DNA from: an uncultured Candidatus Saccharibacteria bacterium
GTDB taxonomy: Bacteria; Patescibacteriota; Saccharimonadia; Saccharimonadales; CAYZZS01
DNA: 64,000 bases
NCBI GenBank assembly: GCA_964483035.1
Contig: CAYZZS010000002.1
Location: forward strand, 24,872-88,871
Direction of reading: 5' to 3'
Both the position numbers and the translations under genes were made by a program. Below, piece after piece: positions 7 through 63,370 of this stretch; the stretch's first letter is position 1, and the number at the start of each line of letters is the position of its first letter. The notes under the pieces were generated by a model, which searched no databases, was not told where the DNA came from, and saw only the letters and a list, made by a program, of their open reading frames with translations.

Positions 7-963
7 TTGGACAAGAATGGTGCTGAGCAGTCGGTAAGTTACGTAAGGGGGGAAGTGAAACTGAACTGGCGCATTGATTGGCCAGCTCGCTGGTCGCTGC
101 TTGGGGTGGATGTTGAACCGTTCGGCCGTGACCATGCCACCAAGGGCGGCTCTTATGATACCGGCAAGGTTATTGCAAGCAAAGTGTATGGTATTCCAGC
201 TCCGCTGCCGGTGCCGTATAACTTCATCAACAGAACCGGAGACACAAAGAAAATGAGCAAAAGTGCCGGTGATACGATAACGGCTGCCGAATTGCTCAAC
301 ATGCTGCCGGCAGAAGTTGTGTGGTATTTCATTATCCGCTATGCGCCGGACAAGCAGCTATTCTTTGATGAGGGGCCGACACTTATGCGTCTGGTGGATG
401 AGTTTAGTGAACTTATAGCCAAGCCGGATAAGTCTGAACTTGAATCGCAGCTGGTTGAGCTGTGCACTCAGGGTATCGAGACGAGGACGGTTAGCAATAT
501 TCCATTCACGCACCTTGTGGCCAGTTATCAGGCCTCACTCAAGGATGCTGATATGACGCTCGAAGTCATTAAAAGGACGGAGCACGCTGAAACAGCTGAG
601 GCGGATGCCGATATTATTCGAAACGAATTGCGCTTTATCGACGCTTGGCTGACAAAAAGTGCGCCAGAGGACGTAAAATTCGAACTGGCGCAAGACGTTA
701 GCCTTGTCGACTTGAGCGATGCGCAGCGGCAATATTTGTCAAAACTGGCAGATAAGATTGAGCAAGCGCCTGCTGATGCCGATGGGGAATGGTTCCATAA
801 GGCGATATATGACTTCAAGGAGACAAGCGGGTTGGCGCCAAAGGATCTCTTTGTAACCCTGTATCAAGTACTGATACGGAAAGACTCCGGCCCGCGCGCG
901 GGATGGTTCCTTAGTATTCTGCCTCGTGAGTGGCTGATCCAGCGCTTACGCCTCCAAGGGTAG
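7..963 (+). CDS. Class I aminoacyl-tRNA synthetase C-terminal portion, most consistent with class I lysyl-tRNA synthetase (5' end truncated by window edge)
   Basis: KMSKS signature (TKKMSKSAGD) and a GRDHATKGGSYDTGK block resembling tRNA-synt_1f family; ORF runs from window start. GluRS cannot be fully excluded. Confidence 0.5.
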   Translation: MDKNGAEQSVSYVRGEVKLNWRIDWPARWSLLGVDVEPFGRDHATKGGSYDTGKVIASKVYGIPAPLPVPYNFINRTGDTKKMSKSAGDTITAAELLNMLPAEVVWYFIIRYAPDKQLFFDEGPTLMRLVDEFSELIAKPDKSELESQLVELCTQGIETRTVSNIPFTHLVASYQASLKDADMTLEVIKRTEHAETAEADADIIRNELRFIDAWLTKSAPEDVKFELAQDVSLVDLSDAQRQYLSKLADKIEQAPADADGEWFHKAIYDFKETSGLAPKDLFVTLYQVLIRKDSGPRAGWFLSILPREWLIQRLRLQG

Positions 964-1587: not shown

Positions 1588-2487
1588 ATGGCTAAGAAGA
1601 CTACAACATCGACCAGGAGTGCGAAAAAAACAGGAAAAAAGACAACCAATAAAAATAAAACTGCAGCAGTCGCCGTCGATTCGGTAAAAAAACAGCGCAG
1701 TGGCGGCTTGTTTGGTTTTCTGAAGGGAAATGAGGCGGGTCTCAATAAATTTAATTTAGTACTCTCATTCCTGTACTTGGTGCAGGCTATAGCGATTATC
1801 GTGCTAAGTAAGCAGGCGAGTCTACCGGTGACAAGTATGTACGGTACAGAGGATAGTCTAGCTACCGGAAGCGGGGAGATAGTGTCAGCCCAGGCGATAC
1901 GTCATTTGTTTGATGTTAGCTTGCCGTACATATTGGCTGTCATGCTGCTTATTCCGGCGGTATTGCACTTTGTTTCAGCAAATGTATTCGGGGCGCAGTA
2001 TAAGAAGGATGTGCAGGTTGGCCGCAACCGGTTCCGCTGGATAGACTATAGCGTCGGCGGAGGGCTTGCGCTATTGGTGGTAGCTATGCTGAGCGGTGTT
2101 CGGGATATCGCAAGTCTGCTGATGATAGCGGGTTTGAATATCGGGGTCTATCTGCTGGCTTCTATCATTGAATCAGCTGGTGCTCGCGGTGATGCGCGTA
2201 CCGCTCGCCTACGAAATGCAGGACTGCTGCTTGGCGCGCTACCACTTGTTACGATCGCATTGTACGCTATTAGTAGTCTGACGTATGGTGACGATGCGCT
2301 GCCGCTGTATCTCTATGGCTTATATGCGGTTACGATATTGCTTGGGCTGTTTTTGGCCTCGCGGTTGCTGGCGTTTTCAAGGAGTAAAGTCACTGATTAT
2401 CCATATGCAGATCGTCAGTTTAGCCTAGCGGGCTTGCTGGCGAAGAGTGCGGTAGCCTGGATAGTGTTTGCCGGTCTGCTCCGCTAA
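1588..2487 (+). CDS. Heliorhodopsin-like 7TM retinal protein with Lys/Thr-rich basic N-terminal extension
   Basis: Seven predicted TM helices and a long TM1-TM2 loop. Motifs FRWIDYS (TM3) and AKSAVAW (TM7, putative Schiff-base Lys) match my recollection of heliorhodopsin 48C12 (FRWVEYS, AKSALAW); LNKFN...LVQ and ALPVT also align. Confidence 0.6.
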   Translation: MAKKTTTSTRSAKKTGKKTTNKNKTAAVAVDSVKKQRSGGLFGFLKGNEAGLNKFNLVLSFLYLVQAIAIIVLSKQASLPVTSMYGTEDSLATGSGEIVSAQAIRHLFDVSLPYILAVMLLIPAVLHFVSANVFGAQYKKDVQVGRNRFRWIDYSVGGGLALLVVAMLSGVRDIASLLMIAGLNIGVYLLASIIESAGARGDARTARLRNAGLLLGALPLVTIALYAISSLTYGDDALPLYLYGLYAVTILLGLFLASRLLAFSRSKVTDYPYADRQFSLAGLLAKSAVAWIVFAGLLR

Positions 2488-22858: not shown

Positions 22859-24913
22859 ATGACGCCTAATTTGAACGAAGAGATTGAAGCGGCGGCTGCA
22901 AAAGGTGTGCCGCCGCAATACATTGCGTCATCTTTGATTGCTGCAGGCTGGCCGGAGAGCCTTGTCAACCAGGCGATCGCCAGCTGGCGTATGCGGCGGC
23001 CTGCACAGCGCACAGTCGGGTTCCGTAGTTGGCTTGCTAGATATCGGTCGCGTGCCCTGCCGGCAGTTATCACTATGATAGCGTTTGGCTGTATCAGCGT
23101 AGCGATCATTTTACTCAAGCCATGGCCAACTAAGATTATGATTGACTCCGCCTTCGGTCCGTACACCGCGCCCGGTCCGCTTGCACCGCTGACCGGTAAG
23201 CCGGAGCTTATTCTCGTTACTGCTATACTTACGATTATTATTTTTCTAGTCGGATCTGCATTCCATTTGCTAAAAAACTATACGCTACTGAAGCTTAGCT
23301 TTTGGCTGAACCGGGATATTAAGGAAGAGTCGTTCCGTCACATACTGCACCTGCCGCTGTATCACCAGGAGCGGTTGGCGAAGGGTGATTATGTGTATCG
23401 TCAGAATATCGTGACTAATAGTCTGGCGGACTACGTCCTTGGCACGACGGCATCGATTGGCGAGTCGGTAATAATGGTTATTAGCGTTCTTACGGTCATG
23501 CTGTACTTTAGCGTTGAGTTGACGATTATCAGTGTCATCCTGGTGCCGTTTCTTTTTGTGCTTATTCGGATGTTTGGTCCGCCGCTCGGTAAAATCGCCC
23601 GCGAGAGCGCCGAAGTTGCCAGTAAAACCTCTGCGGTTCTGCATGAGTCAGTTGATAACGCCGAAGCTGTACAGGCATACACGCTTGAAGAGAAGCAGAT
23701 CATGAAGGCAAACAGCTTGTGGCAGAGGGGTTACGAGTTATCAAAACTGGGCCTGTTCTGGGGTCACGCTTTCAGGTCGGTTAACTCGTTGCTCATAATC
23801 TTAGGAACCTCAGCAGTCATGTATTTCGGCGGTATGTCGGTGCTCAAGCAGGAGATTACAATCGGTGAGCTGCTGATTTTCATGACGTATATGGGGTATC
23901 TTCTTGGTCCAATCGAGGCCATTGCTACGCAGCTGGCTGCTCGAAAACAGAAGCTAGTGGATGTCGGCCGAGTTCATGAAATCATGAGTGACCATGAAGG
24001 GATTGAGTTCCTGCGACAAGGTATTCCGTTTGAGCCGGGAAGTGGGAAGATCGAGTTTCAGAACGTGTCGTATAGCTATGGTGATGTCTCTGTACTACAA
24101 GGTCTGAATCTGACGATTGAGGCAGGCCAGAAGGTTGCAATCATCGGGCCGAGCGGCAGCGGAAAAACAACAATCGCTAAGATGCTACCACTCTTTATTC
24201 AGCCGGCTGAAGGGCGTATTTTGGTTGATGGTATAGATACACAGACCGTATCGCTTCAGCAGCTGCGTCAGAAGATCGCCTGGATCGGGCAGACGCCGCA
24301 GCTGTTTGGCCAGTCGGTGCTGGAGAATATCCTAGACGGCGATGTCTATCGCCGCCCCACCGAAGAAGAGGTTCGTGAGGTGATGCGGGTCGCCCATGTC
24401 GATGAATTTGTCGCTAAGATGCCTATGGGTGTACAGACGATGGTTGGCGAGGAGGGGAGTACGCTGAGCGGCGGCCAGCGTCAGCGCGTCTCGATAGCCC
24501 GGGGACTGCTCAAGCAGGCGCCTATTTTATGTATGGACGAACCGACGGCAGCACTTGATAGCAAGAGTGAGAACTATATCCGTGATGCACTTATGCCCGC
24601 CATGCAGGGCAGGACCGTGCTGATGATTACGCATCGTAAATCACTACTCAAGTTGATGGACAAAATATATGTTCTGGATAACGGAGTGCTTCGTGATGTC
24701 AATGAGCTGGGCGGTATTGATCGGTACCTGCAGAAAATTGAGGGAGAAGACAATCGACAGGACGCAAAAGCTAAGCGTTTTGAGCATTTGATTGACGAAT
24801 ACATACAGTATAGCCGCCAGCGAAATCGTCGGATTGCGGAGTCGCTGGAGAGTTGGTCAGCTGCTTCTCCTGATGCGCTGGGCGGCAGCCCGCCGTTCGA
24901 TACCGATAGCTAG
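22859..24913 (+). CDS. ABC exporter, fused permease + ATPase (MsbA-like) with roughly 70-aa N-terminal helical extension
   Basis: 6 TM region, Walker A GPSGSGKTT, LSGGQRQR, DEPTAALD; N-terminal AGWP-containing module shared with the 51550 gene. Confidence 0.85.
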   Translation: MTPNLNEEIEAAAAKGVPPQYIASSLIAAGWPESLVNQAIASWRMRRPAQRTVGFRSWLARYRSRALPAVITMIAFGCISVAIILLKPWPTKIMIDSAFGPYTAPGPLAPLTGKPELILVTAILTIIIFLVGSAFHLLKNYTLLKLSFWLNRDIKEESFRHILHLPLYHQERLAKGDYVYRQNIVTNSLADYVLGTTASIGESVIMVISVLTVMLYFSVELTIISVILVPFLFVLIRMFGPPLGKIARESAEVASKTSAVLHESVDNAEAVQAYTLEEKQIMKANSLWQRGYELSKLGLFWGHAFRSVNSLLIILGTSAVMYFGGMSVLKQEITIGELLIFMTYMGYLLGPIEAIATQLAARKQKLVDVGRVHEIMSDHEGIEFLRQGIPFEPGSGKIEFQNVSYSYGDVSVLQGLNLTIEAGQKVAIIGPSGSGKTTIAKMLPLFIQPAEGRILVDGIDTQTVSLQQLRQKIAWIGQTPQLFGQSVLENILDGDVYRRPTEEEVREVMRVAHVDEFVAKMPMGVQTMVGEEGSTLSGGQRQRVSIARGLLKQAPILCMDEPTAALDSKSENYIRDALMPAMQGRTVLMITHRKSLLKLMDKIYVLDNGVLRDVNELGGIDRYLQKIEGEDNRQDAKAKRFEHLIDEYIQYSRQRNRRIAESLESWSAASPDALGGSPPFDTDS

Positions 24914-25005: not shown

Positions 25006-25533
25006 CTAGCGCCCAACGAAGTTATTCCAGTCTTCGTCAGCCCGTCGCCGCGCCTCTAGCCAGGTCATGCCGGGGTACTGATCGATGAGGGCCCGGGCGT
25101 TATTGCGAAGTCTGGCGTCCAGATCGGCCAGCTCACCTTTTGGTAGGTGGGACTTTATGTATTCGTCTAAATCGGCATCAATATGTGCCCGTGCCTGCTC
25201 CGGTGTCATCCATGGGTTTTCTTTGTTGTAGGCCTGCGCCCGTTCGCGCAATTTCTGTTCAATATTAGCAAGCCAGTCTTCTCCGCTAAGTGCTTTAATC
25301 TGGCCGCTCTTGTAACGGTTCTGATACTTTGCCCGATATAGCTTATCCAGCAGCTCCTTAAGCAGGGACTTTTCGTTTGAGGTTAATCGCGCATGGGTGC
25401 CTTGGGCTTTTATCTTGGCAATAACCTCTTTGGCACTAGGTCTAATAGAGGCAGAGGGGCGCTCCGAAACCTGTGTGACGGATATTTTCTTCTTTGGTTT
25501 GCTGCTGGTTGATTTCTTGGCTTTGGCGTTCAT
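25006..25533 (-). CDS. Hypothetical protein with basic K/S-rich N-terminus and two 'ARxxAD.DW.NFV'-type repeats
   Basis: Motifs EQARAHIDADLDEYIKS and LEARRRADEDWNNFVGR match the repeat family of the adjacent large gene. Confidence 0.55.
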   Translation of the reverse strand: MNAKAKKSTSSKPKKKISVTQVSERPSASIRPSAKEVIAKIKAQGTHARLTSNEKSLLKELLDKLYRAKYQNRYKSGQIKALSGEDWLANIEQKLRERAQAYNKENPWMTPEQARAHIDADLDEYIKSHLPKGELADLDARLRNNARALIDQYPGMTWLEARRRADEDWNNFVGR

Positions 25534-25568
25534 GACTCTGGCTACAGTTAATTAGCTACCCCTGATGA

Positions 25569-27818
25569 TTACCACGGAACATTACCGTTTGCGTCCATAG
25601 GTACGCTGTTATAGAGTGCACCCGCGATGTCTACAGCATTTTCAGGCGTGACACCTGGTGCACTAGCCGGTAGGTTAGCGGCGATTTGCTGGAGTCGCTG
25701 TTCATGAGCCGCTGCTTCTTGGGCTGCAACGAAATTCTGGAAATTCGTATCAGCGATGGCTCTTGCTTCAGCCCAGCTTGAAGCCTGTCCGCTTGTTAGG
25801 AGTTCCGTTGCATTTTTGTCAAGTGCTTCGTCAAGCTGCGCTAATTCGGGACTGGCGTTTGGACGGGTGAGGAAGTTTTCCCAGTCTCGGTCTGCCATGG
25901 CTCGGGCGACATGCGGAGCATACCCTTGGCTGACATACACTTGCGCATTTTCATTGAGGGCGTGCTCTAGCCTTGCTAAGTCATCCTGTGCTTTTAGGAC
26001 TTCAGGGGGCAGCTCATCTTGGTTCGTATTGATTGGTGCTGCCGGGTCGGTCGTGATGGCGGGTGCAGGAGTAGACACCGGCTGCTCCTGCCAGGGGTTT
26101 GCCTCTAGCCATGGATCCGGTGATGATGATTGCTGTGGTGGTTCCTGGGGCTGCACCCACGGTTCTCCGGGTTGATTTACCCAGGGTTGTTGCTGCCATG
26201 ACTCTTGCTGCTTCTGCGCTTCCTGTTCCTGCTGCCACTGTTGCTGTGCCTGTCCGACCGGGTCAACCCATGAGGGCTGCTGTGCTACATTGTAGTCTAC
26301 GGCGATGCTATTGGCTTCGGCGGCCGCGCGATCGGCTGCATATCGCTCTTCTTGCTCTCGTGCCTTTAGAACTTCGGGGGGCAGTTCATCCTGATTCATA
26401 TTGATTGGAGCTGTCGGATCGGATGTTATTTCCGGCGCAGGGACGGTTACCGGCTGTTGTGAGCGGACGAAATCGTTGAATTCGCGGTCGGCCTGGGCTC
26501 GCGCGTCATCCCAGCTCATACCGGTCTCGCGTGATATTTCAGCTGCCCGGTCGTCCATCCTTTTGATGAAGGTATTCCACTCGTCTTCGACCCGATACCT
26601 GGCTTCACTTTCAGGTACGCCCGGGTTTTTCCGCATGTACTCCTCGGTCTGTTTATTCAGATGGTCTTCGAGCTTGGCGAGGTCATCGCTGCTTTTGCCG
26701 CTCTCTACATCGCCAACGAAATTCTGGAAGTCAACCTCAGCCTGGGCCCGTGCCTTGTTAAAGTCATCGCCGTACATTTCGGGGAAGCGGCGCATGAGCT
26801 CACGAGCGTTGTAATCCAGCCGGGCGGAGAGTTCAGCCAGCGGATCCATACCAAGGCCGGTATTGAGATGCGCCGGGTTGTCTTCGTTGTGATGGTTTGG
26901 CGTCACGCTGACCGGATTGCCCGCGGCAGCTTCGGCTTGCGCCCTTTCCCAGTCGCTGACCGGCTGATCTGTCCCCGTGAGTAATCCTGCTTTCGCATCT
27001 TCAATGATACGGTCCGGGGAAGGTCCGCCTCGCAGTTCGTCTTTCGCATCTTCGATTATTTGATCAGGTGAGCGAGACGAGCTATTGTCTGTGAATGTGT
27101 GGTTACGAAAGCCGTCACTGGCCGGGAGGTTGAAAGGGTTGTCGTCGATGAGCGGCTTGGCGGCAACATCGTAATCCTGGGCTGCCGCATTGGCTTGTGC
27201 GGCTTTCTCGGCTGGGGTCAATTGCCGTGCGCCGCTTGGTGACGGGCCATCCTGGTCCGTTACGGATACTTTGACCGGATTACCGACCGCGGCTTCTTCC
27301 TGGGCCTTATCGTCGCGGCCCAGCAGTCGGTCGGTGATAGGATCAGGGATTGATGTCGGCTGTTGCCTGTAGGGGGAGTTGCCGGCCGGTGAACTCTCCT
27401 GGGCATTCAAAGCGTTGCGGTTAGTGCCCAAATCGGCGGCGGCTGCCGGCTGGCTGGTGCTGCTTCTGGACTCCTGCCTCACTTCGGAATTCGAGTTTGA
27501 GCTGCGATCCCCGGAGGCGACAGGCGCAGTGTAACTGGTCCGGCGGCTTGCTTCTTCTTTGGCGCGGCGTTCGACTTCCGATTCAGTGCGCACGCCGCCC
27601 TTGCCGGGCTGTTCAGCGGCGCCTAACCCGGCTTCTTCCGGACCGCCTTTTTTCGGAATATTGCTCTTAGCAGTAGTGCTGCTGTCGGAATTGTCTGCCT
27701 GGCTGTCATCTTCGGGCTGTCTCATGATGGCCTGTGACCAGTCATCGATGCGGCGGACTACACGGAAGTCATCGCCGTTGCTACCATTATTATCTGTTGA
27801 GTTGTTGTCCGGTTCCAT
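25569..27818 (-). CDS. Large low-complexity repeat protein (749 aa) with at least five roughly 40-aa 'L..L...L..NA.EL....P.M....ARAxADxDWxNFV' repeats, S/N/Q-rich N-terminal half and Q/W-rich segment
   Basis: Repeats at aa ~325-370, 378-420, 433-453, 612-652, 658-700; additional internal duplications (SPDxIIEDAK x2; PAPxIT.DP.APIN.NQDELPPEVLKA x2). Confidence 0.6.
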   Translation of the reverse strand: MEPDNNSTDNNGSNGDDFRVVRRIDDWSQAIMRQPEDDSQADNSDSSTTAKSNIPKKGGPEEAGLGAAEQPGKGGVRTESEVERRAKEEASRRTSYTAPVASGDRSSNSNSEVRQESRSSTSQPAAAADLGTNRNALNAQESSPAGNSPYRQQPTSIPDPITDRLLGRDDKAQEEAAVGNPVKVSVTDQDGPSPSGARQLTPAEKAAQANAAAQDYDVAAKPLIDDNPFNLPASDGFRNHTFTDNSSSRSPDQIIEDAKDELRGGPSPDRIIEDAKAGLLTGTDQPVSDWERAQAEAAAGNPVSVTPNHHNEDNPAHLNTGLGMDPLAELSARLDYNARELMRRFPEMYGDDFNKARAQAEVDFQNFVGDVESGKSSDDLAKLEDHLNKQTEEYMRKNPGVPESEARYRVEDEWNTFIKRMDDRAAEISRETGMSWDDARAQADREFNDFVRSQQPVTVPAPEITSDPTAPINMNQDELPPEVLKAREQEERYAADRAAAEANSIAVDYNVAQQPSWVDPVGQAQQQWQQEQEAQKQQESWQQQPWVNQPGEPWVQPQEPPQQSSSPDPWLEANPWQEQPVSTPAPAITTDPAAPINTNQDELPPEVLKAQDDLARLEHALNENAQVYVSQGYAPHVARAMADRDWENFLTRPNASPELAQLDEALDKNATELLTSGQASSWAEARAIADTNFQNFVAAQEAAAHEQRLQQIAANLPASAPGVTPENAVDIAGALYNSVPMDANGNVPW
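25976..26066 (-). repeat. Intragenic direct repeat copy (roughly 85% identical to 26363-26453)
   Basis: Encodes PVSTPAPAITTDPAAPINTNQDELPPEVLKA; the nucleotide similarity to the second copy is visible by eye. Confidence 0.6.
26363..26453 (-). repeat. Intragenic direct repeat copy (pairs with 25976-26066)
   Basis: Encodes PVTVPAPEITSDPTAPINMNQDELPPEVLKA. Confidence 0.6.
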
Positions 27819-27957
27819 ATACTGCGCACCTTTTTATTTTTTAAACAGTGTATACCTTGAGCATAAGCGGTTAGATTCTTCACGTCAAATCTTTTTTACA
27901 ACTTTTTGATATACGCATTAACAATCGCGCATAGGTAGTCTTATTAACGTAAGCATA

Positions 27958-27986
27958 TTGACAAAACAGCAATATTTTGCTAAAAT
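27958..27986 (+). promoter_or_regulatory. Near-consensus sigma70 promoter (TTGACA-17-TAAAAT) for the PP2C-FHA gene
   Basis: Perfect -35 hexamer, 17-nt spacer, TAAAAT -10; roughly 25-nt A/C-rich leader without Shine-Dalgarno before ATG 28016. Confidence 0.55.
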
Positions 27987-28015
27987 AAGATATGTAACGT
28001 ACAAAAACAAACATT

Positions 28016-29506
28016 ATGTCAGCATCACATCACCATCCCGAAACACACCACAATGTACCGCCGGTCGTGGCGGAATATATGAGCACGCATCGCCACAAAG
28101 AGCTGTATAACGATGTAATGTATGCCGGCTGGGCTGAAAAGACCAAGATAGGCAAGGATGGGCAGCCGATGCCGTTCTCAGAGGATGCCGTATATGCCTT
28201 TGTTGACCAAGAGTCAGGCAATGGTATATACGGTGTTTTTGATGGTGCCGGCGGCATGGATGATGGCAGGGGCGCTTCCGAAGCGGCCCGCCAGTATCTT
28301 CATGAGTACGCCATGCAGCACGGTGATACGGTGCCATCGAATCCGCGCCAGAACATTGAAAACATAGTAGAAGAGATGGTAGACAGGGTGGCTGCGGTGA
28401 GTAAAGGCGCTACTACCGGCGTGATTGCGATGGTGCATAAGGACCGAGAGGGCGGACAGAAGCTCGCTTGGGCGGGGGTGGGTGACTCGCTGCTATTTGT
28501 TATCAGAGGAGGCAGGGCATATCAGCTGAACCGCGAAGAGACGCAGCGGCAGGAGATGTTGGAGCAAGGAAAGTCCGAGGCAGAGGCAGATAGGCATGGG
28601 AATGTTATTACAAACGCGCTCGGCTCTGATACTTACACAGGGTTAAATCAAACTGATGTTATCCAGCTCTATCCCGGCGACCAGATTTTGTTAGTGTCGG
28701 ATGGAGTAACCGGTGATACCTCGAAGCAGCGGTTGCGCGGCGGAGATAATATGGCGGCCATAGAAGAGGTAATGAACGCACCGCATGCGACGCCGCAGCA
28801 AAAGGCCGAGGCGCTGATTGAGGCCGCAACCAAGAATGATGACCGTAGCGCCATGATTATTCAGATTGACGGGCCGCAACCTTCGGCAGAGGCGGTCCGC
28901 GAAGGTGATCGGAGCAGTCAGCGTGTCGGTAGGGCAAGTGGCGTTGTTGCGGTCGGTAGTCTTCTAGAGTCGGTTCCGGTTAATGAGCGGAAGGTCGCCC
29001 ATACGATGCGCGAGTATCAATTACACCGTGGCGCCTTGAAGTTGCCAGAAGAGGCCGTAATGGATATTGGTAAGGCGCGCGAGGAGTATGGCGTCAATGG
29101 TATGGTGCTTGCTGAGATTACGCTACCGGCTGCTGAGCATAGTCAGTCTGAACCAAAGATTGGCCTGGTTGATTTTGGGGCGCTAGCTACTGAGCGGCCG
29201 ACTCCTGTTAAGTATGTTGACGGTAGACCGGCCGAGGAGTTGGGCGTAACACACTCGCGGTACGCCCTCATAGCTTTAAATTATATGGGCGAGGGTGACC
29301 GCGCTCCATTCCTGGAGTTAAGCAAGGCTGAAATGACCATTGGTCGTCAAAATATACACCCCATGCTGGGGCTTACGAGTACGCCAGACGGTTCACTGAT
29401 TTCCCGGAGGCACTTTACCGTTGAGCAGAGTGAGGACGGAAAGGGGTTAACGATCAGGGATCACTCCACCAACGGAACACGTATCAAGGTTGCAGCCCGC
29501 GGTTAG
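28016..29506 (+). CDS. PP2C-family Ser/Thr protein phosphatase fused to C-terminal FHA domain
   Basis: PP2C motifs (GVFDGAGG, LLVSDGV, metal-binding D residues); C-terminal FHA signature (TIGRQ...SRRHFTV...RDHSTNGTRI). Confidence 0.8.
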   Translation: MSASHHHPETHHNVPPVVAEYMSTHRHKELYNDVMYAGWAEKTKIGKDGQPMPFSEDAVYAFVDQESGNGIYGVFDGAGGMDDGRGASEAARQYLHEYAMQHGDTVPSNPRQNIENIVEEMVDRVAAVSKGATTGVIAMVHKDREGGQKLAWAGVGDSLLFVIRGGRAYQLNREETQRQEMLEQGKSEAEADRHGNVITNALGSDTYTGLNQTDVIQLYPGDQILLVSDGVTGDTSKQRLRGGDNMAAIEEVMNAPHATPQQKAEALIEAATKNDDRSAMIIQIDGPQPSAEAVREGDRSSQRVGRASGVVAVGSLLESVPVNERKVAHTMREYQLHRGALKLPEEAVMDIGKAREEYGVNGMVLAEITLPAAEHSQSEPKIGLVDFGALATERPTPVKYVDGRPAEELGVTHSRYALIALNYMGEGDRAPFLELSKAEMTIGRQNIHPMLGLTSTPDGSLISRRHFTVEQSEDGKGLTIRDHSTNGTRIKVAARG

Positions 29507-29534
29507 CGCCTCGGTGTTGAGTTCACCATCGCTT

Positions 29535-29564
29535 AAAACAAAAACCGGCCGATGGCCGGTTTTG
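29535..29564. terminator. Bidirectional intrinsic terminator between convergent PP2C-FHA and rpmA genes
   Basis: AAAACAAAAA-ACCGGCC-GAT-GGCCGGT-TTTT: GC stem flanked by an A-run and a T-run. Confidence 0.6.
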
Positions 29565-29591
29565 TCGTAAATTGAATACTTACGTAAAGTC

Positions 29592-29866: not shown

Positions 29867-31075
29867 TTACTTCCTTATTAGTACTACAAGTTCACGGGCG
29901 ACCGTTTGGCCGGGACGATGATAGATGAGATCCTCATCACTAACGTGAACAAAACTTAGACGAGTATAGCCTAATTCCGCTAAATTATCAAGGGTTTTGA
30001 GGTGTTTGAAGCCATTATTTGTCCTCCAGGCAGGAACAGCGATGCACAGGCGGAATCCCGGCTTGGTTTGCTTCGCGACATTCCGGAGAAATTTCTTGTG
30101 AATCAGATTGACGTCATGTATGACTTCGGTAAGTGTTTCGGGATCCGGCTCGCTGCTGAAGGGTCGACCGAGATAGGTCTCGCAGGCGATAAAGTCAGGC
30201 AGCGGCGACCACTGCAGCTCGGTAGCGTCACCGGTTTGCAGCTGGTAGTAACGTTTATCGGGCGAGTGGGGGATTGCTCGGCCCTTGTCTAAGGTGAGCA
30301 GCCATTGCAAATTTTCATCAGTATAATCAACCATTCGCTGATCCAGGTCGCTGCCCATAATGTCGTAACCCATCAGACTGGCTTCTTGTAGCACAACCCC
30401 AGTACCACAGAATGGGTCAAGGACGGTCGCACCTTTCTCCGGACCGGTCGAACCGACGGCAAGATTGATTATGATCTGTGCGAGCTTGGGCGGCAGCATG
30501 CCGACCTTAGCATCGCGCTTGGGGCGCTTCTGGTCGCGGGCGGCATAGGCTTCAATGTCTTGTTCGGCGGTGGTGCGGGCGATGATGGTTTGATTGCGGG
30601 TGCGCACAAACACTAGCTCCCAGCCCATTGGTCCGGTTAGGTTGTTGTGCAGGACCTGGGCGCTATTAAGGGCCGGGGACTTGTTCGGTACGATGCGCAC
30701 GGAGCGACCGGTGGCTCTGATGGCCTTCTTGACTTTCAGGCCGGTAGCAAGCAGCGGCTTCAGTCCGACCGCCAGGTTGTAAACACTTAAGCCGATGCTT
30801 AATTTACCGTCACCGGACAATAAGGCAGCGTGTTCCGGAGTTGTATCAATCAGGAACTGTTCGATCTCCTTCCAGTTCGTCGTATCCAGCCGAGTCAGGA
30901 CTTGTGTGAGCTTGACGCTGCCGCCAAGGCGCGTGAAATCAATTTTGTCCGGTGCCATTTGCAGCAGCACAGCCTGGTCATTTACTGGTGTGATGAGCTT
31001 GCCTCCATAAAGGCTCTCGAGCTCGGCGATACCAAGGGCTGGCTGGCGGCCAAGAATGATTAAACTTTGATCCAT
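29867..31075 (-). CDS. Putative RNA methyltransferase (UPF0020/Trm14-RlmL-like Rossmann domain with THUMP-like N-terminal region)
   Basis: VLDPFCGTGV motif I; roughly 190-aa N-terminal non-catalytic domain; motif IV diverged (CETY in place of D/NPPY). Confidence 0.5.
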   Translation of the reverse strand: MDQSLIILGRQPALGIAELESLYGGKLITPVNDQAVLLQMAPDKIDFTRLGGSVKLTQVLTRLDTTNWKEIEQFLIDTTPEHAALLSGDGKLSIGLSVYNLAVGLKPLLATGLKVKKAIRATGRSVRIVPNKSPALNSAQVLHNNLTGPMGWELVFVRTRNQTIIARTTAEQDIEAYAARDQKRPKRDAKVGMLPPKLAQIIINLAVGSTGPEKGATVLDPFCGTGVVLQEASLMGYDIMGSDLDQRMVDYTDENLQWLLTLDKGRAIPHSPDKRYYQLQTGDATELQWSPLPDFIACETYLGRPFSSEPDPETLTEVIHDVNLIHKKFLRNVAKQTKPGFRLCIAVPAWRTNNGFKHLKTLDNLAELGYTRLSFVHVSDEDLIYHRPGQTVARELVVLIRK

Positions 31076-47312: not shown

Positions 47313-48410
47313 ATGGAAGAGCCTACTACTGCCAATGAGATCAAAGAGCAAGCTGCGCCGGAAGAGGTGCAGGATGAGTCAAAAGAAACTTTGACCGCGG
47401 CGATTTTACAGGATTTGCCGGCGGCGAACGAGGACGGATATCAGGAAACGGATATCTTTGCCTGGGCGAATAATCTGGTGCAATATGTCGAGGACCTCAA
47501 GATAAACCTGTATTTCTTCAATAGGAATTATATTGTCTACAAGACCAAGCTGGCTGGCGAGGTGGCGCGGCAGCTCAGGCCGCTATTTATCGATGAAATC
47601 CTGGAGTACATCTTGGGCGGCATAGAGAAGGGGCTGGTGGTTCGCGGCTTCGAGGAAGCAGAATCTGAGGAATTGGTACTACAGCGCACGCGCGTTAAGA
47701 ATGTCGACAAGCTGGTTGAGGTGCTCAACTGGCTTAAGACCCAGTCGCACGAGATCGAGACGTTCGTTGAGGAGGAGCATGACCTAAAGCGTATCAAGGG
47801 GGTTATAGCCCAGTGTACCGCCGAGGGTTTGGAGGCACCGTTTTACCTGATCAAAAGCCTGCCGACCACCCAGGTCATGAAAGGGCACACTGCCTGGATG
47901 CTGAAGGACGGGACATTCAAGCCCTTCGATAATATGAGCGCGCTGAAGATACCCGGAGAAAACCAACTACTAGTAGTTGGACAGGACCTGTTTGTCTTTA
48001 ATCAGGCAAAACTGAAGTCACTGTTTGGTTATGACGCCAAGGCCGCCAGTATCGCTGCTAAGAAGGTGGCAGAGATTGAGGCGAACTTCAAACTCAGCTT
48101 TAGTGAGGGTGCTAGCTTGCAGTCTTTGGTCAAGGGTAAGCCGGCGGCTATTAAGAAACTGCAGAAGATTGAGCCCAGCCTGGTCAAGCAGCAGGACCTG
48201 ATTGACCATTCGGATGAGCTGGGGGTGGGGCTGATGACCGATGATGACGGCTCGATAATTATCATGGATGACAAAGATCTGGTGCGGTTCGTGAACCTGC
48301 TTAATGACGACTATATCGAGTCGCCAATGACCGGCCAGCGGTATGAAATCATCAAGAAGAGGCCGCTCAAGCCAGCGGACGAAGAAGAGCTGCTCAAACA
48401 AGTTCTGTAG
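47313..48410 (+). CDS. Hypothetical acidic protein (365 aa)
   Basis: No recognised motif; convergent with the next gene. Confidence 0.45.
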   Translation: MEEPTTANEIKEQAAPEEVQDESKETLTAAILQDLPAANEDGYQETDIFAWANNLVQYVEDLKINLYFFNRNYIVYKTKLAGEVARQLRPLFIDEILEYILGGIEKGLVVRGFEEAESEELVLQRTRVKNVDKLVEVLNWLKTQSHEIETFVEEEHDLKRIKGVIAQCTAEGLEAPFYLIKSLPTTQVMKGHTAWMLKDGTFKPFDNMSALKIPGENQLLVVGQDLFVFNQAKLKSLFGYDAKAASIAAKKVAEIEANFKLSFSEGASLQSLVKGKPAAIKKLQKIEPSLVKQQDLIDHSDELGVGLMTDDDGSIIIMDDKDLVRFVNLLNDDYIESPMTGQRYEIIKKRPLKPADEEELLKQVL

Positions 48411-57541: not shown

Positions 57542-58435
57542 ATGCACCACGATGAAAAATCTAAACACATTCCGGTACTTCTGAAGGAAGTGCTCGAGTA
57601 TCTGGATCCGAAGCCAGGTGAATCATATCTGGATCTGACGGCTGGTTACGGCGGGCACGCCAGTGAAGTGCTGGCATGCACCAAAGCCTGGTCAAAGGCA
57701 GTGTTGGTAGACCGCGATGACAATGCCATTCGCGAGCTCACCAAGAAGTTCGAAGACCAGGATGTTCGAATCATACACGACGATTACTTGGCAGCCGCAA
57801 ACCGGTTACTGGAAGCAGGGCAGCGATTCGATCTGGTGCTGGCGGATTTAGGTATTTCGTCACCCCACATTGACACCGCGAAGCGAGGTTTCGCAATCAA
57901 TCTGGAGGGGCCGCTGGACATGCGAATGGACAGCCGCCAGGCATTGACTGCCGCGGATATCGTCAATACGTATCCGGAGGCTGACATTGCTGCGATACTG
58001 CGCGATTACGGGGAAGAGCCCAAAGCGGATCGGATAGCCCGTATGATCGTAGAGCATCGACCGATTGCGACAACGACCGAGCTGGCGGAAATAGCTGCCG
58101 CAGTATGGCCAAAGGGCAGAAGTCGGGTACATCCGGCGACACGCACCTTTCAGGCTTTACGTATAGTGGTAAATGACGAACTCGGCCTGCTGGAAGCAGC
58201 ATTGCCGGTCTGGTTCGATTTACTGAAGCCTGGCGGACGGATCGCCATCATCAGCTTTCATAGCCTGGAGGACCGGGTAGTGAAGCGGGCGATAGCTGAG
58301 CGGGCAGGCGACCGGTATGATGCTGATCTGAAAATCCAGACCAAGCAACCGGTAGTCGGCAGTCATGAGGAATTAGTTCTTAATCCGCGCGCACGGAGCG
58401 CAAAGCTCCGGGCCGCAGTGAAAATAAAAACATAA
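57542..58435 (+). CDS. rsmH: 16S rRNA (cytosine1402-N4)-methyltransferase RsmH/MraW
   Basis: Full-length match (DLTAGYGGHAS, DLGISSPH, FHSLEDR). Confidence 0.9.
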   Translation: MHHDEKSKHIPVLLKEVLEYLDPKPGESYLDLTAGYGGHASEVLACTKAWSKAVLVDRDDNAIRELTKKFEDQDVRIIHDDYLAAANRLLEAGQRFDLVLADLGISSPHIDTAKRGFAINLEGPLDMRMDSRQALTAADIVNTYPEADIAAILRDYGEEPKADRIARMIVEHRPIATTTELAEIAAAVWPKGRSRVHPATRTFQALRIVVNDELGLLEAALPVWFDLLKPGGRIAIISFHSLEDRVVKRAIAERAGDRYDADLKIQTKQPVVGSHEELVLNPRARSAKLRAAVKIKT

Positions 58436-58659
58436 AAGACGTTTCTGGCGCCAAAATAGCGCGAGTGACGTCACAAAAAGAAAGGGAAAGGCCTACTATG
58501 CCAATCCAGGTAAAAAGTAGCTCCCGCACATACAAAGTTCGCGTCAAAGTATTGTAGTTAAGTCCTACAATCCGCGGACAATAGGGAGGCGGACGCCGCT
58601 TCAAAATCAAGCGGCGTCCGTCAAGCGCACCTTTCTACCGGGCATACAGAAACAAAAAT

Positions 58660-59007
58660 ATGACATATTCAAGCTCACTTACCATGAATCGCCAGCGCTT
58701 TGCGCAGCGCAACCAAAACGCCGTTAGCTTTCGGGCGAAGACACGAACCATCGGTCCGATAAGCAACACTATTATCCTGATTGTCCTGGCATGCTTGCTA
58801 GGGCTGCTGTATCTTACTCAGGTCACTAAGACCAATGCCTACGGCTACACTATCAATGAACTTAACCAGCAAAAATCTGCATTAGCTGAAGAGCATGCGG
58901 AGCTGGAAGTAGAATCGGCTCGTTTACAAGCTGTAGACCGGATCAAGCACAGTGATATTGCTAAAGGACTGGTCTCCGTCGCGCCCAGCGGCTCTGTTCA
59001 GAACTAG
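58660..59007 (+). CDS. FtsL-like cell-division protein (single TM + coiled coil)
   Basis: Position between rsmH and ftsI; bitopic topology. Confidence 0.55.
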   Translation: MTYSSSLTMNRQRFAQRNQNAVSFRAKTRTIGPISNTIILIVLACLLGLLYLTQVTKTNAYGYTINELNQQKSALAEEHAELEVESARLQAVDRIKHSDIAKGLVSVAPSGSVQN

Positions 59008-59064
59008 CGTATAATAGTAAATCCGTGCCGGGATAAGACCCGTTGCCTCCGTGAGTATATTTGC

Positions 59065-60837
59065 ATGCGATCATCCATAACCAGCTCAACACCGGCCAAC
59101 CCGCTGACGCGTATAAAGATCATATACGCCGCATTGCTATTCATTGCCTGCATCTTCGCCATCAGGCTTTTTTATCTACAAATTATCAAACATGGACACT
59201 ACCAGAACGCCGCGATAACCGGGCAGCTAAAAGAGTATGAGATACCAGCCTCACGCGGGTTAATTGAAGCCTATGACGGGGACAAGATCGTGCCGATTGT
59301 CTTAAACGAAAAGAAATACACGCTGTTTGCAGATCCGATGTATATCGAGGATCCAGCGGAAGCCGCTGAAGCAGTACAGCGGATTATCGGCGGCAGTGCG
59401 GACGACTACCGCGAGCTAATGGGAGCTGATACGCGGTACGCGGTGCTGGCTAAGAAGTTGGACAAGGATCAGCGGGATGCTTTGGATGGGCTGGAGATTA
59501 AGGGAATTGGCACCAGGGAAGAGGAGTATCGTACGTACCCGCAAGGACAATTGGCAGCACAGCTGCTGGGGTTTGTTAATGATGACGGTGAAGGGAAGTA
59601 CGGAATCGAGCAGTACCTGGATAAAGAGCTGAGAGGCCGGCCTGGCCAGCTTCGGGCCATTACCGATGCCCGGGGGATACCCCTGGTGTCGAACAAGGAT
59701 AACGTGGCCATTAGCCCGGTTGCCGGCGAGAATGCTGTCTTAACCATTGATATCGCCATGCAGCGGCACGTCGAAGATATCTTGAAGAAGGGCGTCGAGG
59801 CTGCTAAGTCTAAGTTCGGCAGCGCGGTCGTTATGGATCCAAAAACCGGTGCTGTAAAGGCGATGGCTAATTTCCCGTCGTATAACCCGGCAGAATTTTA
59901 TAAAGTCGAGGATGCGGCGGTGTTTAATAACGCGGCTGCCTCCGAAGCGCTCGAAGTCGGTTCTGTCATGAAACCGCTGACACTGGCTGCAGCGCTCGAT
60001 AAAGGCGTAGTGAGCCGGGATACGACGTATTATGATCCGGGATTTATGAAGATTGACGGCGCCACGATTACCAATGTCGAGGAATCCGGCGGGGCCGGCA
60101 TTAAATCAATGGGCGATATTTTGCGCCTGTCTTTGAATACCGGCGCCTCCTTCTTGTTAGCGCAAATGGGCGGCGGGGAGGTCAATGAGCAGGCAAGGGT
60201 TACCTGGCATGATTATATGGTGAACCATTACGGATTTGGCCGGCCGACCGGTGTCGAGCAAGGGTTTGAAGCGTCGGGCACTATCCCTGACCCGCTGGAT
60301 GGGTTTGGCCTTAATATCCAATATGCTAACACCTCATTTGGTCAGGGTATGACTGCGACACCGCTGCAAGTCGCGGCTGCGATCTCAAGCGTCCTGAATG
60401 GCGGCACCTACTATAAACCGTACCTGATTGATCGGACTATCGACGGGAAGGGAGGTGAGGTGGTGCACGAGCCGGTTGCAGTGCGTAGCAATGTCGTGCA
60501 CGAGGGAGCGGGTAAGGCCGTGAAAGAATTGATGGAAGAGGTAATCCGCACAAACTACCGGACGTATGGATTTGATAGGATTAGAGCCGAGTATGCCATC
60601 GGCGGCAAGACTGGTACGGCCCAGATCGCCGATTCGGAAGGCGGCTATTACACGGATAGGTTTAATGGTGTGTTCATGGGGTTTGTCGGTGGAGACTCAG
60701 TTGATTATGTTATTGTCGTCCGGGTAGACGAGCCTAAAATCCCGGGCTATGCCGGCTCCCGTGCCGCCGGCCCAATATTTGCCGATATCGCTAATATGCT
60801 GATTGATACATTTTCTGTAACACCTAAATCAAGATAA
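59065..60837 (+). CDS. ftsI: Penicillin-binding protein (class B transpeptidase, FtsI-like)
   Basis: N-terminal TM, dimerisation domain, transpeptidase motifs (GSVMKP = SxxK, GGKTGTAQ = KTG). Confidence 0.85.
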   Translation: MRSSITSSTPANPLTRIKIIYAALLFIACIFAIRLFYLQIIKHGHYQNAAITGQLKEYEIPASRGLIEAYDGDKIVPIVLNEKKYTLFADPMYIEDPAEAAEAVQRIIGGSADDYRELMGADTRYAVLAKKLDKDQRDALDGLEIKGIGTREEEYRTYPQGQLAAQLLGFVNDDGEGKYGIEQYLDKELRGRPGQLRAITDARGIPLVSNKDNVAISPVAGENAVLTIDIAMQRHVEDILKKGVEAAKSKFGSAVVMDPKTGAVKAMANFPSYNPAEFYKVEDAAVFNNAAASEALEVGSVMKPLTLAAALDKGVVSRDTTYYDPGFMKIDGATITNVEESGGAGIKSMGDILRLSLNTGASFLLAQMGGGEVNEQARVTWHDYMVNHYGFGRPTGVEQGFEASGTIPDPLDGFGLNIQYANTSFGQGMTATPLQVAAAISSVLNGGTYYKPYLIDRTIDGKGGEVVHEPVAVRSNVVHEGAGKAVKELMEEVIRTNYRTYGFDRIRAEYAIGGKTGTAQIADSEGGYYTDRFNGVFMGFVGGDSVDYVIVVRVDEPKIPGYAGSRAAGPIFADIANMLIDTFSVTPKSR

Positions 60838-61037
60838 GGACAAACTATGCAACGATATTTTTCCATGAGCAGCCATCCACTAGCTTTGAGCAGATTCCAC
60901 GCTAGGCTTGCCAGTCATTATTATTCAGTATCAAAGAGGAGTATAATGAACGCATTGCAGTTTGTTGCCAAAAGTATAAATGACGCGGTAGGACTGACCG
61001 GGCGTAGCTTGCTGGGCATGACATCTAGCGGCAAGGG

Positions 61038-62102
61038 ATGGAAATAGCTATCATGGGAAATACATTTCAGATACTTGTAGAGACCGATACGGTTATCAGA
61101 ATCCTGCTGCTTGGCTTTATGGGTTTTCTGCTAAGCATGCTTATCACGCCGCTCTATACGACGCTGGCTTATAAGTATGAGTGGTGGAAGAAGCCGCGGG
61201 CTACTGCCGTAACAGGTGAGGCGGCCAAGGTCTTTAACAGTCTGCACGGTGAGAAACACAAGCGGCATATACCGACCATGGCTGGTATCGTGTTCGTGGT
61301 CGCGGTCGGACTAGTCACAGTGCTGTTCAATCTCAGCCGGGCTGAGACATGGTTGCCGGTGGCAGCTTTCGTGGGTGCAGGAGCAGTCGGGCTCATAGAC
61401 GATATTATCAATATCAAAGGCAGCGGAAACGGCGTAGCGGGCTTACCATCAAAGCTAAAGCTGCTGCTGATCGTGCTGATTGCGCTGATTGGCGGCTGGT
61501 TCTTTTACTATAAGTTGGATGTTACTACGATTCACATTCCCGTTCTGGCGATAGATCTGGCAATCGGCTGGCTGATTATCCCACTATTTGTGCTAGTGGT
61601 TGTAGCAACGGCAAACGCCGTGAACATCACGGATGGCTTAGACGGCTTGGCTGGCGGCCTGGTGTCTATGGCGTTTGTGACGTATGCCATTATTGCCTTT
61701 TTGGAGGGCAGGTATGGTATTGCCGGCTTTTGTATGACGATTGTCGGTGCACTGCTGAGCTACACCTGGTTCAATATCAATCCGGCCCGGTTCTTTATGG
61801 GCGACGTCGGCTCATTCTCGCTCGGAACAGCGCTAGGGGTGGTGGCTATGCTGACTGATACGATGGTGCTGCTGCCGATTATTGGTATCGTCTTTGTGGC
61901 TGAGGCTGGTTCGTCGATGATCCAGATCCTGTCTAAGAAACTGCGAAACGGGAAGAAGATCTTTAAGATTGCGCCAATTCACCATCACTTCGAAGCCAGT
62001 GGCTGGCCGGAAACCAAGGTGACGATGCGGTTTTGGATCATCGGTCAAGTGGCCAGTGTGCTCGGACTGATTCTGTTTCTGACAGGGAAGTACATCGGCT
62101 AG
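61038..62102 (+). CDS. mraY: Phospho-N-acetylmuramoyl-pentapeptide transferase MraY
   Basis: 10-TM polyprenyl-phosphate transferase motifs (NAVNITDGLDGLA, PARFFMGDVGS). Confidence 0.85.
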   Translation: MEIAIMGNTFQILVETDTVIRILLLGFMGFLLSMLITPLYTTLAYKYEWWKKPRATAVTGEAAKVFNSLHGEKHKRHIPTMAGIVFVVAVGLVTVLFNLSRAETWLPVAAFVGAGAVGLIDDIINIKGSGNGVAGLPSKLKLLLIVLIALIGGWFFYYKLDVTTIHIPVLAIDLAIGWLIIPLFVLVVVATANAVNITDGLDGLAGGLVSMAFVTYAIIAFLEGRYGIAGFCMTIVGALLSYTWFNINPARFFMGDVGSFSLGTALGVVAMLTDTMVLLPIIGIVFVAEAGSSMIQILSKKLRNGKKIFKIAPIHHHFEASGWPETKVTMRFWIIGQVASVLGLILFLTGKYIG

Positions 62103-62113
62103 GAGGGCGGTTT

Positions 62114-63370
62114 ATGCAGCCACGTTTCACATCACGCCGCAGACCGGGAGTTATGACGGCAAATGGCCGCAAGCATCGGCCGGACTATAAGCTGCCGCTG
62201 CTGAGTATCGCGCTGCTTGGTATCGGTTTGGTCGTGGTGTATGCTATCGGCCCCAGTCTGGCCGCCCAAAAAGATGTTGGCGAAAACTACTATGCAGGCA
62301 AGCAGGTTATCTCAATTCTGCTTGGCATTATCGCCTTTGCTATCACTGCCAATGTTCCGGTCAGCTGGTGGCGGCGGCTGACGAAAGCATTGATTGTGGC
62401 AGCTGCACTTGCATCAATAGCTGTCCGGGTGTTCGGCGAGGAAATCAACGGCGCGTACCGGTGGATACAGATAGGCGGCGTGTCGTTCCAGGCAGCCGAA
62501 CTGATAAAGTTTGCACTGCTTATCTGGCTGGCAGGGCTGTTGACTGAACGGATCAAGGACGGAAAACTGACCGATTATCATAAAAGCTTCAAGCCGCTTT
62601 TAATAGCCCTGGCTGTAATCGGGGCAGTGGTTGTGTGGTTGCAAAGTGACCTAGGGTCGGCAGCAGTGATGTTTGCGATGATGGCAGTTATGTTGTTCGT
62701 CGCCGGCCTGCCTATGAAACAGATATTGGCCTTTGGCGGCATAGTTTTGGTGGCGGTAATGCTGTTTATTGCCAGTACGCCGTACCGACGTGATCGGGTG
62801 GCGACATTCCTTAACCCTACGCAGGATTGCTTGAGCTCTGGTTACCAGTCCTGCCAGGCACTTATAGCTGTTGGCTCCGGTGGCATGTTCGGTAAAGGCT
62901 TGGGACACAGCGTGCAGGCAACCGGCTACTTGCCCGAGGCGGCCAATGACTCTATCTTTGCAATCTATGCCGAGAAGTTCGGGTTTTTAGGAGTAGCAGT
63001 ACTGCTAGGCTTATTTGTTGCCCTGTTTGTGCGGCTATTCCGTATTGCGGAGCGGGCTCCGGATGACTACGCAAGGCTGCTGATGATGGGCATCATAGCC
63101 TGGCTGGCTGCACAGTCGATTATCAATATTGGGGCGATGATCGGCATATTGCCGCTGAAGGGTATAACGCTGCCGTTTGTGAGCTACGGCGGCACCAGTC
63201 TGCTCTTTGTGACAGGTGTCATGGGTGTGGCTTTTCAGATATCACGGTATACTACATTTGTAACAGCAGCGAATACCAACAGTAATGAAGCAGGACGTCA
63301 TGCGAACAATCGTACTGACCGGCGGAGGATCAGGGGGGCATATCACCCCGGTCTTAGCGGTCGCGGATGA
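62114..63370 (+). CDS. ftsW: SEDS-family peptidoglycan glycosyltransferase FtsW
   Basis: GGAGGG RBS before ATG 62114 (ORF tool start 62033 overlaps mraY); 10-TM SEDS motifs; position in dcw cluster. Confidence 0.8.
   Translation: MQPRFTSRRRPGVMTANGRKHRPDYKLPLLSIALLGIGLVVVYAIGPSLAAQKDVGENYYAGKQVISILLGIIAFAITANVPVSWWRRLTKALIVAAALASIAVRVFGEEINGAYRWIQIGGVSFQAAELIKFALLIWLAGLLTERIKDGKLTDYHKSFKPLLIALAVIGAVVVWLQSDLGSAAVMFAMMAVMLFVAGLPMKQILAFGGIVLVAVMLFIASTPYRRDRVATFLNPTQDCLSSGYQSCQALIAVGSGGMFGKGLGHSVQATGYLPEAANDSIFAIYAEKFGFLGVAVLLGLFVALFVRLFRIAERAPDDYARLLMMGIIAWLAAQSIINIGAMIGILPLKGITLPFVSYGGTSLLFVTGVMGVAFQISRYTTFVTAANTNSNEAGRHANNRTDRRRIRGAYHPGLSGRG

Follow-up and report, generated by a model that had tools for sequence, protein, structure and literature searches.

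Two adjacent genes in an uncultured Candidatus Saccharibacteria bacterium raise the question of what their products are and in which compartment of the cell they act, because both proteins are built from the same short repeat and neither significantly matches a named family. The genes, here called A and B, lie in a stretch of 64,000 nucleotides (GenBank assembly GCA_964483035.1, contig CAYZZS010000002.1, positions 24,872 to 88,871), which we refer to as the window. An earlier reading of the window from its letters and open reading frames (ORFs), hereafter the sequence-only reading, had described A and B as paralogues made from a repeat of roughly 40 aa. Both ORFs were indeed found where it had placed them (Table 1), and two comparisons confirmed their kinship. 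A hidden Markov model (HMM) derived from the two units of B alone scored A at 83.3 bits (E 4.6e-25) and recovered all five A units; the best score of the same model on 1000 shuffled versions of A was 9.0 bits. BLASTP of A against B gave E 1.4e-9.

The element common to both proteins is a helix-loop-helix unit of about 44 aa, present in five copies in A and two copies in B, with the 44-position consensus xDxLAxLxxxLxxNAxExxxxxPGxxxxxARAxADxDxxNFV. It comprises a first helix of the pattern L..L...L..NA.E, a P-G-M-S/T-W loop, read as PGMTW, TGMSW or QASSW in units, and a second helix EAR..AD.DW.NFV. All repeat endings quoted in the sequence-only reading, five in A, as well as the two in B, were present; the preceding L..L...L..NA.E helix, which it had assigned to every repeat, was found in four of the five A units and is mostly missing from the truncated third (aa 421-453). 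The AlphaFold2 model of B, computed from a six-row alignment, contains six helices, of which the canonical units form two helix pairs; pLDDT, taken in blocks of 10 residues, is 77-89 for the greater part of both pairs. Each repeat is thus predicted to be a helical hairpin, as had been surmised. A double hairpin of about 90 aa, corresponding to A units 4 and 5, recurs at the C-terminus of A, B, the distant relative P0003 and a paralogue encoded beside P0003 in the metagenomic locus L008. The family arose by nested duplication and belongs to the general class of alpha-hairpin repeat proteins. We propose that the hairpins, mostly arranged in pairs, are the only folded elements of A and B, strung on long disordered segments, and the structural reading of hairpin pairs as interaction modules on disordered tethers is reasonably grounded.

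The segments between the hairpins differ markedly in composition. The N-terminal region of A (aa 1-323), previously described as rich in Ser and Asn, contains 11% S and 7% N along with 12% A, 10% D and 8% P, and includes the tandem SPDxIIEDAK units noted before. The Q/W-rich block of the sequence-only reading corresponds to the linker (aa 456-610; 16% Q, 16% P and 7 Trp). The two direct repeats, given earlier as about 90 nt, proved real but 97 nt long and 76% identical, and their coordinates had been a few bases off. In B, two units follow the expected Lys/Ser-rich basic tail (aa 1-45; pI 10.9, 22% S+T, 12 Lys+Arg). Residues 1-83 render B basic overall, its hairpins themselves being acidic, and the basic helical stretch before unit 1, with AlphaFold2 helices at 34-47 and 52-75, is possibly a degenerate third hairpin unit; BLASTP aligned A 332-451 with B 48-173. 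Hydropathy analysis gave no signal peptide or membrane segment in A or B, in agreement with the earlier view, the highest 19-aa Kyte-Doolittle averages being 0.44 (A) and -0.14 (B), and there is no cysteine in A, B or P0003. The B gene follows A after 35 nt in the same orientation, and the two genes are probably co-transcribed. A Shine-Dalgarno-like AAAGGTG lies about 10 nt ahead of the ATG of A; the consensus scan for promoters yielded three sites in the region, with 2.2 expected by chance.

Table 1. Coordinates of the A/B locus, its hairpin units and its two neighbouring genes in the window.
Feature	Position	Strand	Remark
Gene A	25569..27818	(-)	ORF; 749 aa, acidic pI 4.39, five hairpin units split by disordered regions
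A aa 1-323	26850..27818	(-)	Acidic, A/S/D/P/N-rich, presumably disordered; short internal duplications
SPDxIIEDAK tandem	26990-27020 / 27041-27071	(-)	Two copies, 51-nt period, within A N-terminal region
A unit 1, aa 324-370	26709..26849	(-)	B-unit HMM domain 326-368, 18.0 bits
A unit 2, aa 377-420	26559..26690	(-)	B-unit HMM domain 379-419, 22.5 bits
A unit 3, aa 421-453	26460..26558	(-)	Truncated, most of helix 1 gone; HMM domain 427-453, 18.5 bits
A linker, aa 454-610	25989..26459	(-)	P/Q/W-rich; holds both 97-nt repeat copies
97-nt direct repeat, copy 1	25988..26084	(-)	Encodes PVSTPAPAITTDPAAPINTNQDELPPEVLKA, running into unit 4
97-nt direct repeat, copy 2	26360..26456	(-)	76% identical to copy 1; missing in L001/L002/L003 allele
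A unit 4, aa 611-652	25863..25988	(-)	B-unit HMM domain 613-650, 23.4 bits
A unit 5, aa 655-699	25722..25856	(-)	Unit alignment
A C-terminal tail, aa 700-749	25569..25721	(-)	End ...NGNVPW; P0003 end ...EEPVPWG
Gene B	25006..25533	(-)	ORF; 175 aa, pI 9.86; paralogue of A
B aa 1-83	25285..25533	(-)	Lys/Ser-rich basic tail (aa 1-45), then basic helical stretch
B unit 1, aa 84-128	25150..25284	(-)	AlphaFold2 helices 84-105, 111-129; pLDDT blocks 77-89 over 91-120
B unit 2, aa 132-175	25009..25140	(-)	AlphaFold2 helices 134-152, 158-174; pLDDT 83-89
Promoter-like site TTGACG-17-TATGCT	27860..27888	(-)	Upstream of A; consensus scan only, 9/12 matches
PP2C-FHA gene	28016..29506	(+)	Divergent from A; inside strain-swappable segment ~27930-29590
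ABCB-type exporter	22859..24913	(+)	Convergent with A/B; Pfam; extra ~50-aa N-terminal domain

The family is rare. With A and B as queries, word-indexed searches across 5.8 billion proteins returned near-identical sequences only, and when the unit profile was run exhaustively with HMMER against 1.84 billion cluster representatives, six matches reached E <= 0.001: two from the A/B family itself, P0003 and three weak ones. P0003 (743 aa, E 2.1e-11, five matching stretches) is a true distant relative, with 32% identity between A 630-700 and P0003 644-714 in BLASTP. It originates from an NCBI metagenome-assembled genome, on the 6-kb contig L008 (41% GC), where it faces, in convergent orientation, the C-terminal end of the same ABC exporter as in the window and is preceded by its paralogue, which carries the double hairpin (L008 2801-3292). 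A scaffold gap, filled with N, interrupts the paralogue (L008 2408-3443), and its N-terminus is not covered. Read from the sequences, A (205-219, 494-513) and P0003 (EAAAAQADGLAIDY) also have an AAxAxxxAxDY motif in common, and A ends in ...VPW, P0003 in ...VPWG. No further member was detected by a pattern scan of 185,579 species-representative genomes, by pattern searches of JGI metagenomes, in viral contigs, or by tblastn against phage and plasmid records; nothing in the viral, phage and plasmid searches points to such an origin. The unit HMMs detected no other copy in the window or in 46 related ABC exporter loci, and the PP2C-FHA protein as a query gave no match in the genome collection scan. 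These scans indicate that the family is genuinely rare: A and B constitute a very narrowly distributed orphan family with one other lineage (L008) among 1.84 billion proteins.

Searches of Pfam, NCBIfam, PHROGs, PADLOC and PDB sequences, and Foldseek against the PDB, yielded nothing significant for A or B, which upholds the earlier statement that no repeat family that could be named is matched. No helical repeat family of Pfam (TPR, Sel1, HEAT and others) was reported at E <= 1 for A and B or at E <= 10 for 14 single units. Foldseek with the B model gave a best E of 3.2 against the PDB. The hairpin unit is therefore a sequence family absent from Pfam, NCBIfam, PHROGs, PADLOC and the PDB, near-unique among 1.8 billion proteins, and a clean example of a lineage-specific protein from nested duplication, which by itself is of modest interest. 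Among candidates below significance, the top Pfam match of B was DUF2267 (14.0 bits, E 0.06), short of the gathering threshold of 29.8 bits. Single-unit matches such as the Rv0078B antitoxin and DUF4114, each in one of the 14 units, were dismissed as chance. Pup appeared at E of about 1 in the PDB profile search and was rejected as a chance match; the match to the lambda portal gpB (PDB 8k38 chain A, 372-399; E 0.035), with MSYSTARASANESWAYF / MSYSTARASANESWAYFMGR resembling helix 2 of the unit, is probably also due to chance, since both matches are short and single and there is no phage context.

The nearest known family, and the only lead that recurred, is the N-terminal hairpin of FtsX/ADOP-type permeases. 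The top NCBIfam match of A was NF038403, permease prefix domain 1, at 12.8 bits (E 0.077; cut-off 30 bits), aligned to A aa 380-410 within unit 2, and NF038403 was also the top NCBIfam match for one hairpin unit (E 0.0044), which the output did not identify. The unit profile moreover matched the N-terminus of P0005, which reads as an FtsX/ADOP-type permease, at E 4.4e-4 in the library of 1.84 billion proteins. hhalign aligned the unit with the P0005 N-terminus at 94% probability, with 38% identity over 37 columns and a score of 33.9, as compared with 8.2 +/- 1.7 (maximum 14.5) for shuffled controls. Both follow the pattern helix / G-M-T/S-x-x-E-A-R-x-R-A-x-x-D / helix, and NF038403 resembles the A/B unit in its helix / G-M-S/T-x-x-E-A-R / helix over about 37 residues. 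However, the P0005 hairpin has DLGNV where the A/B units end in the conserved D-W-x-N-F-V, and A and B are soluble proteins with five and two copies and without a membrane segment, whereas NF038403 occurs as a single copy directly before the membrane segments of permeases, as in P0005. A literature search on the function of the permease prefix domain returned no paper. Judged from these alignments, distant homology to NF038403 is plausible, though we stop short of expecting it, and the A/B hairpin may be related to the permease-prefix one and have been multiplied.

Two other helical systems were compared. Alpha-solenoids such as TPR, Sel1 and HEAT proteins also consist of tandem helix-turn-helix units of 34-47 residues, and such hairpin repeats are used for protein binding. 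The A/B units, in contrast, occur in twos or threes with flexible linkers rather than as a continuous solenoid, and Foldseek gave no solenoid match. With the WXG100 proteins of type VII secretion the A/B hairpins have in common that they are small, leaderless and helix-turn-helix, and that a Trp lies within the loop or close to it; yet the A/B loop is G-M-S/T-W-x-E/D-A, not W-x-G, neither the proteins nor the single units matched WXG100 in Pfam, and no EssC/FtsK-type ATPase was found among the scanned window ORFs.

Variation between strains is unevenly spread over A. The identical 749-aa A was recovered on five contigs, which derive from an NCBI assembly and from sequencing runs assembled by Logan, and B was unchanged on 11 contigs, the seven shown coming from seven different runs. 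In the A variants (L001-L005), a linker segment of about 35 aa is replaced in frame and the Q/W block carries in-frame deletions; the indels in the protein alignment measure one residue, 26 aa and 35 aa, all in frame. Nucleotide mismatches are concentrated at 26250-26500, in the A linker, and the hairpins are nearly unchanged, the exceptions being conservative V/I and K/N exchanges within the units or next to them. There are more synonymous than non-synonymous changes (32 vs 22 in L001, 49 vs 30 in L003). B shows no non-synonymous and 0-2 synonymous differences between the compared strain contigs. The exact recovery of A on five contigs and the in-frame, linker-confined differences make misassembly unlikely.

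The gene divergent from A was confirmed to encode a PP2C-FHA phosphatase (Pfam PP2C_2 E 2.5e-8, FHA E 2.9e-5; NCBIfam Stp1-type E 3.7e-20), and from this neighbour the sequence-only reading had taken the hint that A is a phospho-regulated scaffold. In L001 and L002, the segment of about 27930-29590 is unalignable although its flanks are about 99.6% identical. In its place stands a 454-aa protein (L001 6157-7521(-)), which is unrelated to PP2C-FHA (BLASTP E 0.57) but contains an FHA-like GR..SRMH..SANKT stretch (Pfam FHA E 0.0026, 18.6 bits, under the 20.7-bit cut-off). Because an FHA-like match survives the swap of the gene, it is the FHA module, not the phosphatase, that seems to be kept beside A and B. 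By eye, the replacement protein also shows a Cys/His/Asp pattern, GVCRHQA...GHAWARF...IIDVAQ; searches of Pfam and the PDB left its identity as a transglutaminase-like protease unconfirmed. Each neighbour allele is paired with a different linker allele of A, but only two haplotypes were seen.

We tentatively propose, as a possible rather than a probable account, that A and B form a multivalent cytoplasmic scaffold linked to the FHA enzyme. Hairpin pairs would pack into small four-helix bundles and serve as protein-protein interaction modules. The acidic A, with two hairpin clusters, and the basic-tailed B, with one, could assemble into the scaffold, with docking sites offered by the disordered regions of A. 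One candidate client is the divergently encoded FHA enzyme, PP2C-FHA here and another FHA-bearing protein in the sister strains, which may bind phospho-threonines on A. The cytoplasm is indicated by the lack of an export signal, the likeness to a permease hairpin, taken as cytoplasmic, and the FHA-like module on both alleles; the opposite charges of A (pI 4.39) and of B (pI 9.86, with a basic N-terminal half) are consistent with assembly. If true, a phospho-scaffold read by FHA would open a way into the Ser/Thr signalling of an uncultured bacterium with a small genome.

Several observations weigh against this proposal. The pTM of the B model is just 0.32; the hairpins are thus credible, but their mutual packing is not established by the model. 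PP2C itself is dispensable beside A and B, FHA adjacency is confined to one species with the second FHA under the Pfam cut-off, the upstream neighbour in L008 is a cytidylate-kinase-like gene rather than an FHA gene, and no Ser/Thr kinase was found among the scanned window ORFs. The idea of phospho-regulation has gained the FHA-like module on both neighbour alleles without becoming established. In addition, the likeness to permease prefix domain 1 is under the family threshold, cell-wall domains in some unrelated proteins encoded at the same position point outside the cell, and the only context kept in both lineages is adjacency to the ABC exporter, a gene that the sequence-only reading had not mentioned.

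This exporter underlies the strongest alternative, namely that A and B leave the cell without a leader through the convergent ABC exporter. Its extra N-terminal domain would recognise proteins encoded by its neighbours in what would be a single-membrane cell, A and B would work at the envelope or else target a host or partner cell, and the strain-variable linker of A would reflect diversifying selection. N-terminal C39-like domains are used for substrate recognition by ABC transporters of type I secretion systems. We searched for related metagenome loci with the exporter and found 46, on contigs labelled as 0.1-um groundwater fraction and activated sludge, among others. The N-domain (window 22859-23020, residues 1-55; consensus MMPKIYxAIExAxASGVPPQYIAxxLIxQGWPxxLVNxAVxAWL) was recovered in 18 related loci where the pattern search could read the ABC N-terminus, giving an alignment of 19 sequences. 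It has no Pfam annotation, its PDB matches were only designed proteins, with no natural solved structure, and the hairpin profile did not match it. The exporter core is generic, with 240 bits to Sav1866, 222 to MsbA and 222 to PCAT1.

Further points for export come from the hydrophilic, leaderless proteins encoded next to the exporter. Of the 33 loci whose sequence extends 600 nt or more beyond the ABC stop, 29 have a convergent next gene; the next-gene product is without a hydrophobic segment in 32, and its G/P/A/S/T content is 29-67%. All 24 extracted next-gene proteins are free of cysteine, as are A, B and P0003, compared with 0.465% cysteine in the window genes. Exclusion of cysteine from exported proteins has been documented in Gram-positive bacteria (PMC2823432). 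Some same-position proteins carry LysM (L024, 2916-4631; L014 is related to L024 by BLASTP), an M23 peptidase with EF-hands (L031, 10439-12823) or only EF-hands (L023, L015), in each case without a signal peptide. Most of the same-position proteins show no relationship to one another or to A and B, and tandem paralogues are frequent (L047 3142-6176); since they are not homologous to A and B, their traits need not hold for the latter, and disordered regions are free of cysteine in any case.

The comparison with type I secretion (HlyA/HlyB) is likewise two-sided. Substrates of type I secretion are acidic and largely disordered, and A is acidic, cysteine-free, repetitive, largely disordered and without an N-terminal signal, next to an ABC exporter with an extra N-terminal cytoplasmic domain. 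However, A lacks RTX GGxGxD repeats (no HemolysinCabind or related match), no membrane-fusion or outer-membrane partner was seen, the N-domain is neither C39 nor C39-like and has no natural match of known structure, and the exporter, a generic ABCB half-transporter, resembles Sav1866, MsbA and PCAT1 alike. B is basic, unlike the acidic substrates, and unchanged between strains; A/B and the exporter are convergent and not co-transcribed; the sole C-terminal feature common to A and P0003 is the ...VPW(G) end. The A linker and the ATPase-domain region of the exporter are both divergence hot spots between strains, which fits export under selection, but the synteny could merely mark a recombination hot spot between conserved genes. 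The ATPase-domain part (23750-24750) is about 93.5% identical in L003 and L004 beside a CTP synthase at 99.4-99.7%, suggesting a recombination tract. On balance, we consider leaderless export of A and B rather doubtful. The broader version, in which A, B and the same-position proteins are all cargo of an undescribed single-membrane ABCB export route, a type-I-like system that would pick up fast-evolving envelope or host-interaction proteins via the N-domain, we regard as unlikely. If true, such a dedicated route would explain the export of proteins without signal peptides in these bacteria and would point to a whole group of candidate host-interaction proteins whose place in the genome can be predicted.

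The swapped neighbour gene could instead belong to a strain-polymorphic conflict or modification module, in which alternative enzymes guided by FHA, either a PP2C phosphatase or a protein with a C-terminus resembling a transglutaminase-type cysteine protease, would act on the Q/W-rich, Thr-containing linker of A as their variable target. A whole gene exchanged between nearly identical flanks with an FHA-like module in both versions, a linker allele that differs between both haplotypes, and the Cys/His/Asp pattern seen by eye in the second allele would suit such a module. Nevertheless, we judge it very unlikely, given that there are two haplotypes only, that the transglutaminase-like assignment was not confirmed by the Pfam and PDB searches, that PADLOC gave nothing for A, B or PP2C, and that L008 has no such neighbour.

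Even less credence is due to the idea that B, with A as a partner, binds nucleic acid or another polyanion, its Lys/Ser tail contacting DNA, RNA or teichoic-acid-like polymers and its hairpins mediating oligomerisation as in histone-like proteins with basic tails. The basic residues of the B tail and the strong purifying selection on B, without any non-synonymous change, are compatible with this role. Pfam and NCBIfam, however, gave no known DNA- or RNA-binding domain in B, the HU match of the B model in Foldseek (E 7.6 over 34 residues) is noise, A is strongly acidic, and neither end of P0003 bears a basic tail like that of B.

Finally, an artefact by repeat-collapse misassembly, a risk raised in the sequence-only reading, or by a non-coding ORF is essentially refuted, because despite the internal direct repeats in the A gene and the several short-read contigs that break within A (L003-L006), the 749-aa product is identical on five contigs, indels stay in frame, synonymous changes predominate and the distant homologue P0003 has the same architecture.

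Apart from A and B, the window carries housekeeping genes of a Gram-positive-like set, nearly all on the + strand. It encodes SecA, RF2, FtsE, FtsX, a coiled-coil CHAP protein, an M23 peptidase and an S41 protease, then CTP synthase, a stand-alone receiver domain, the ABC exporter, A/B, PP2C-FHA, L27, XseA/B and RecO, and further out an Rpf-like LysM transglycosylase, MraW, FtsI, MraY, FtsW, heliorhodopsin and a KwaB-like protein. The - strand carries few genes, A, B, L27 and a methyltransferase (29867-31075) being among them, and the GC skew is positive throughout 1-64000. Rfam reported no family at threshold in the whole window. MraW, FtsI, MraY and FtsW form a compact run (57542-63370), too tight to accommodate murE, murF or murD in between. 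The heliorhodopsin gene lies at 1588-2487 (+) (Pfam PF18761, E 6.9e-43), and the KwaB-like protein, a component of the Kiwa anti-phage system, is encoded at 47313-48410 (+) (PF16162, E 3.4e-14). At the window edge, positions 7-963 (+) encode a fragment of a class I lysyl-tRNA synthetase (PF01921, E 4.9e-42), which is the less common type in bacteria.

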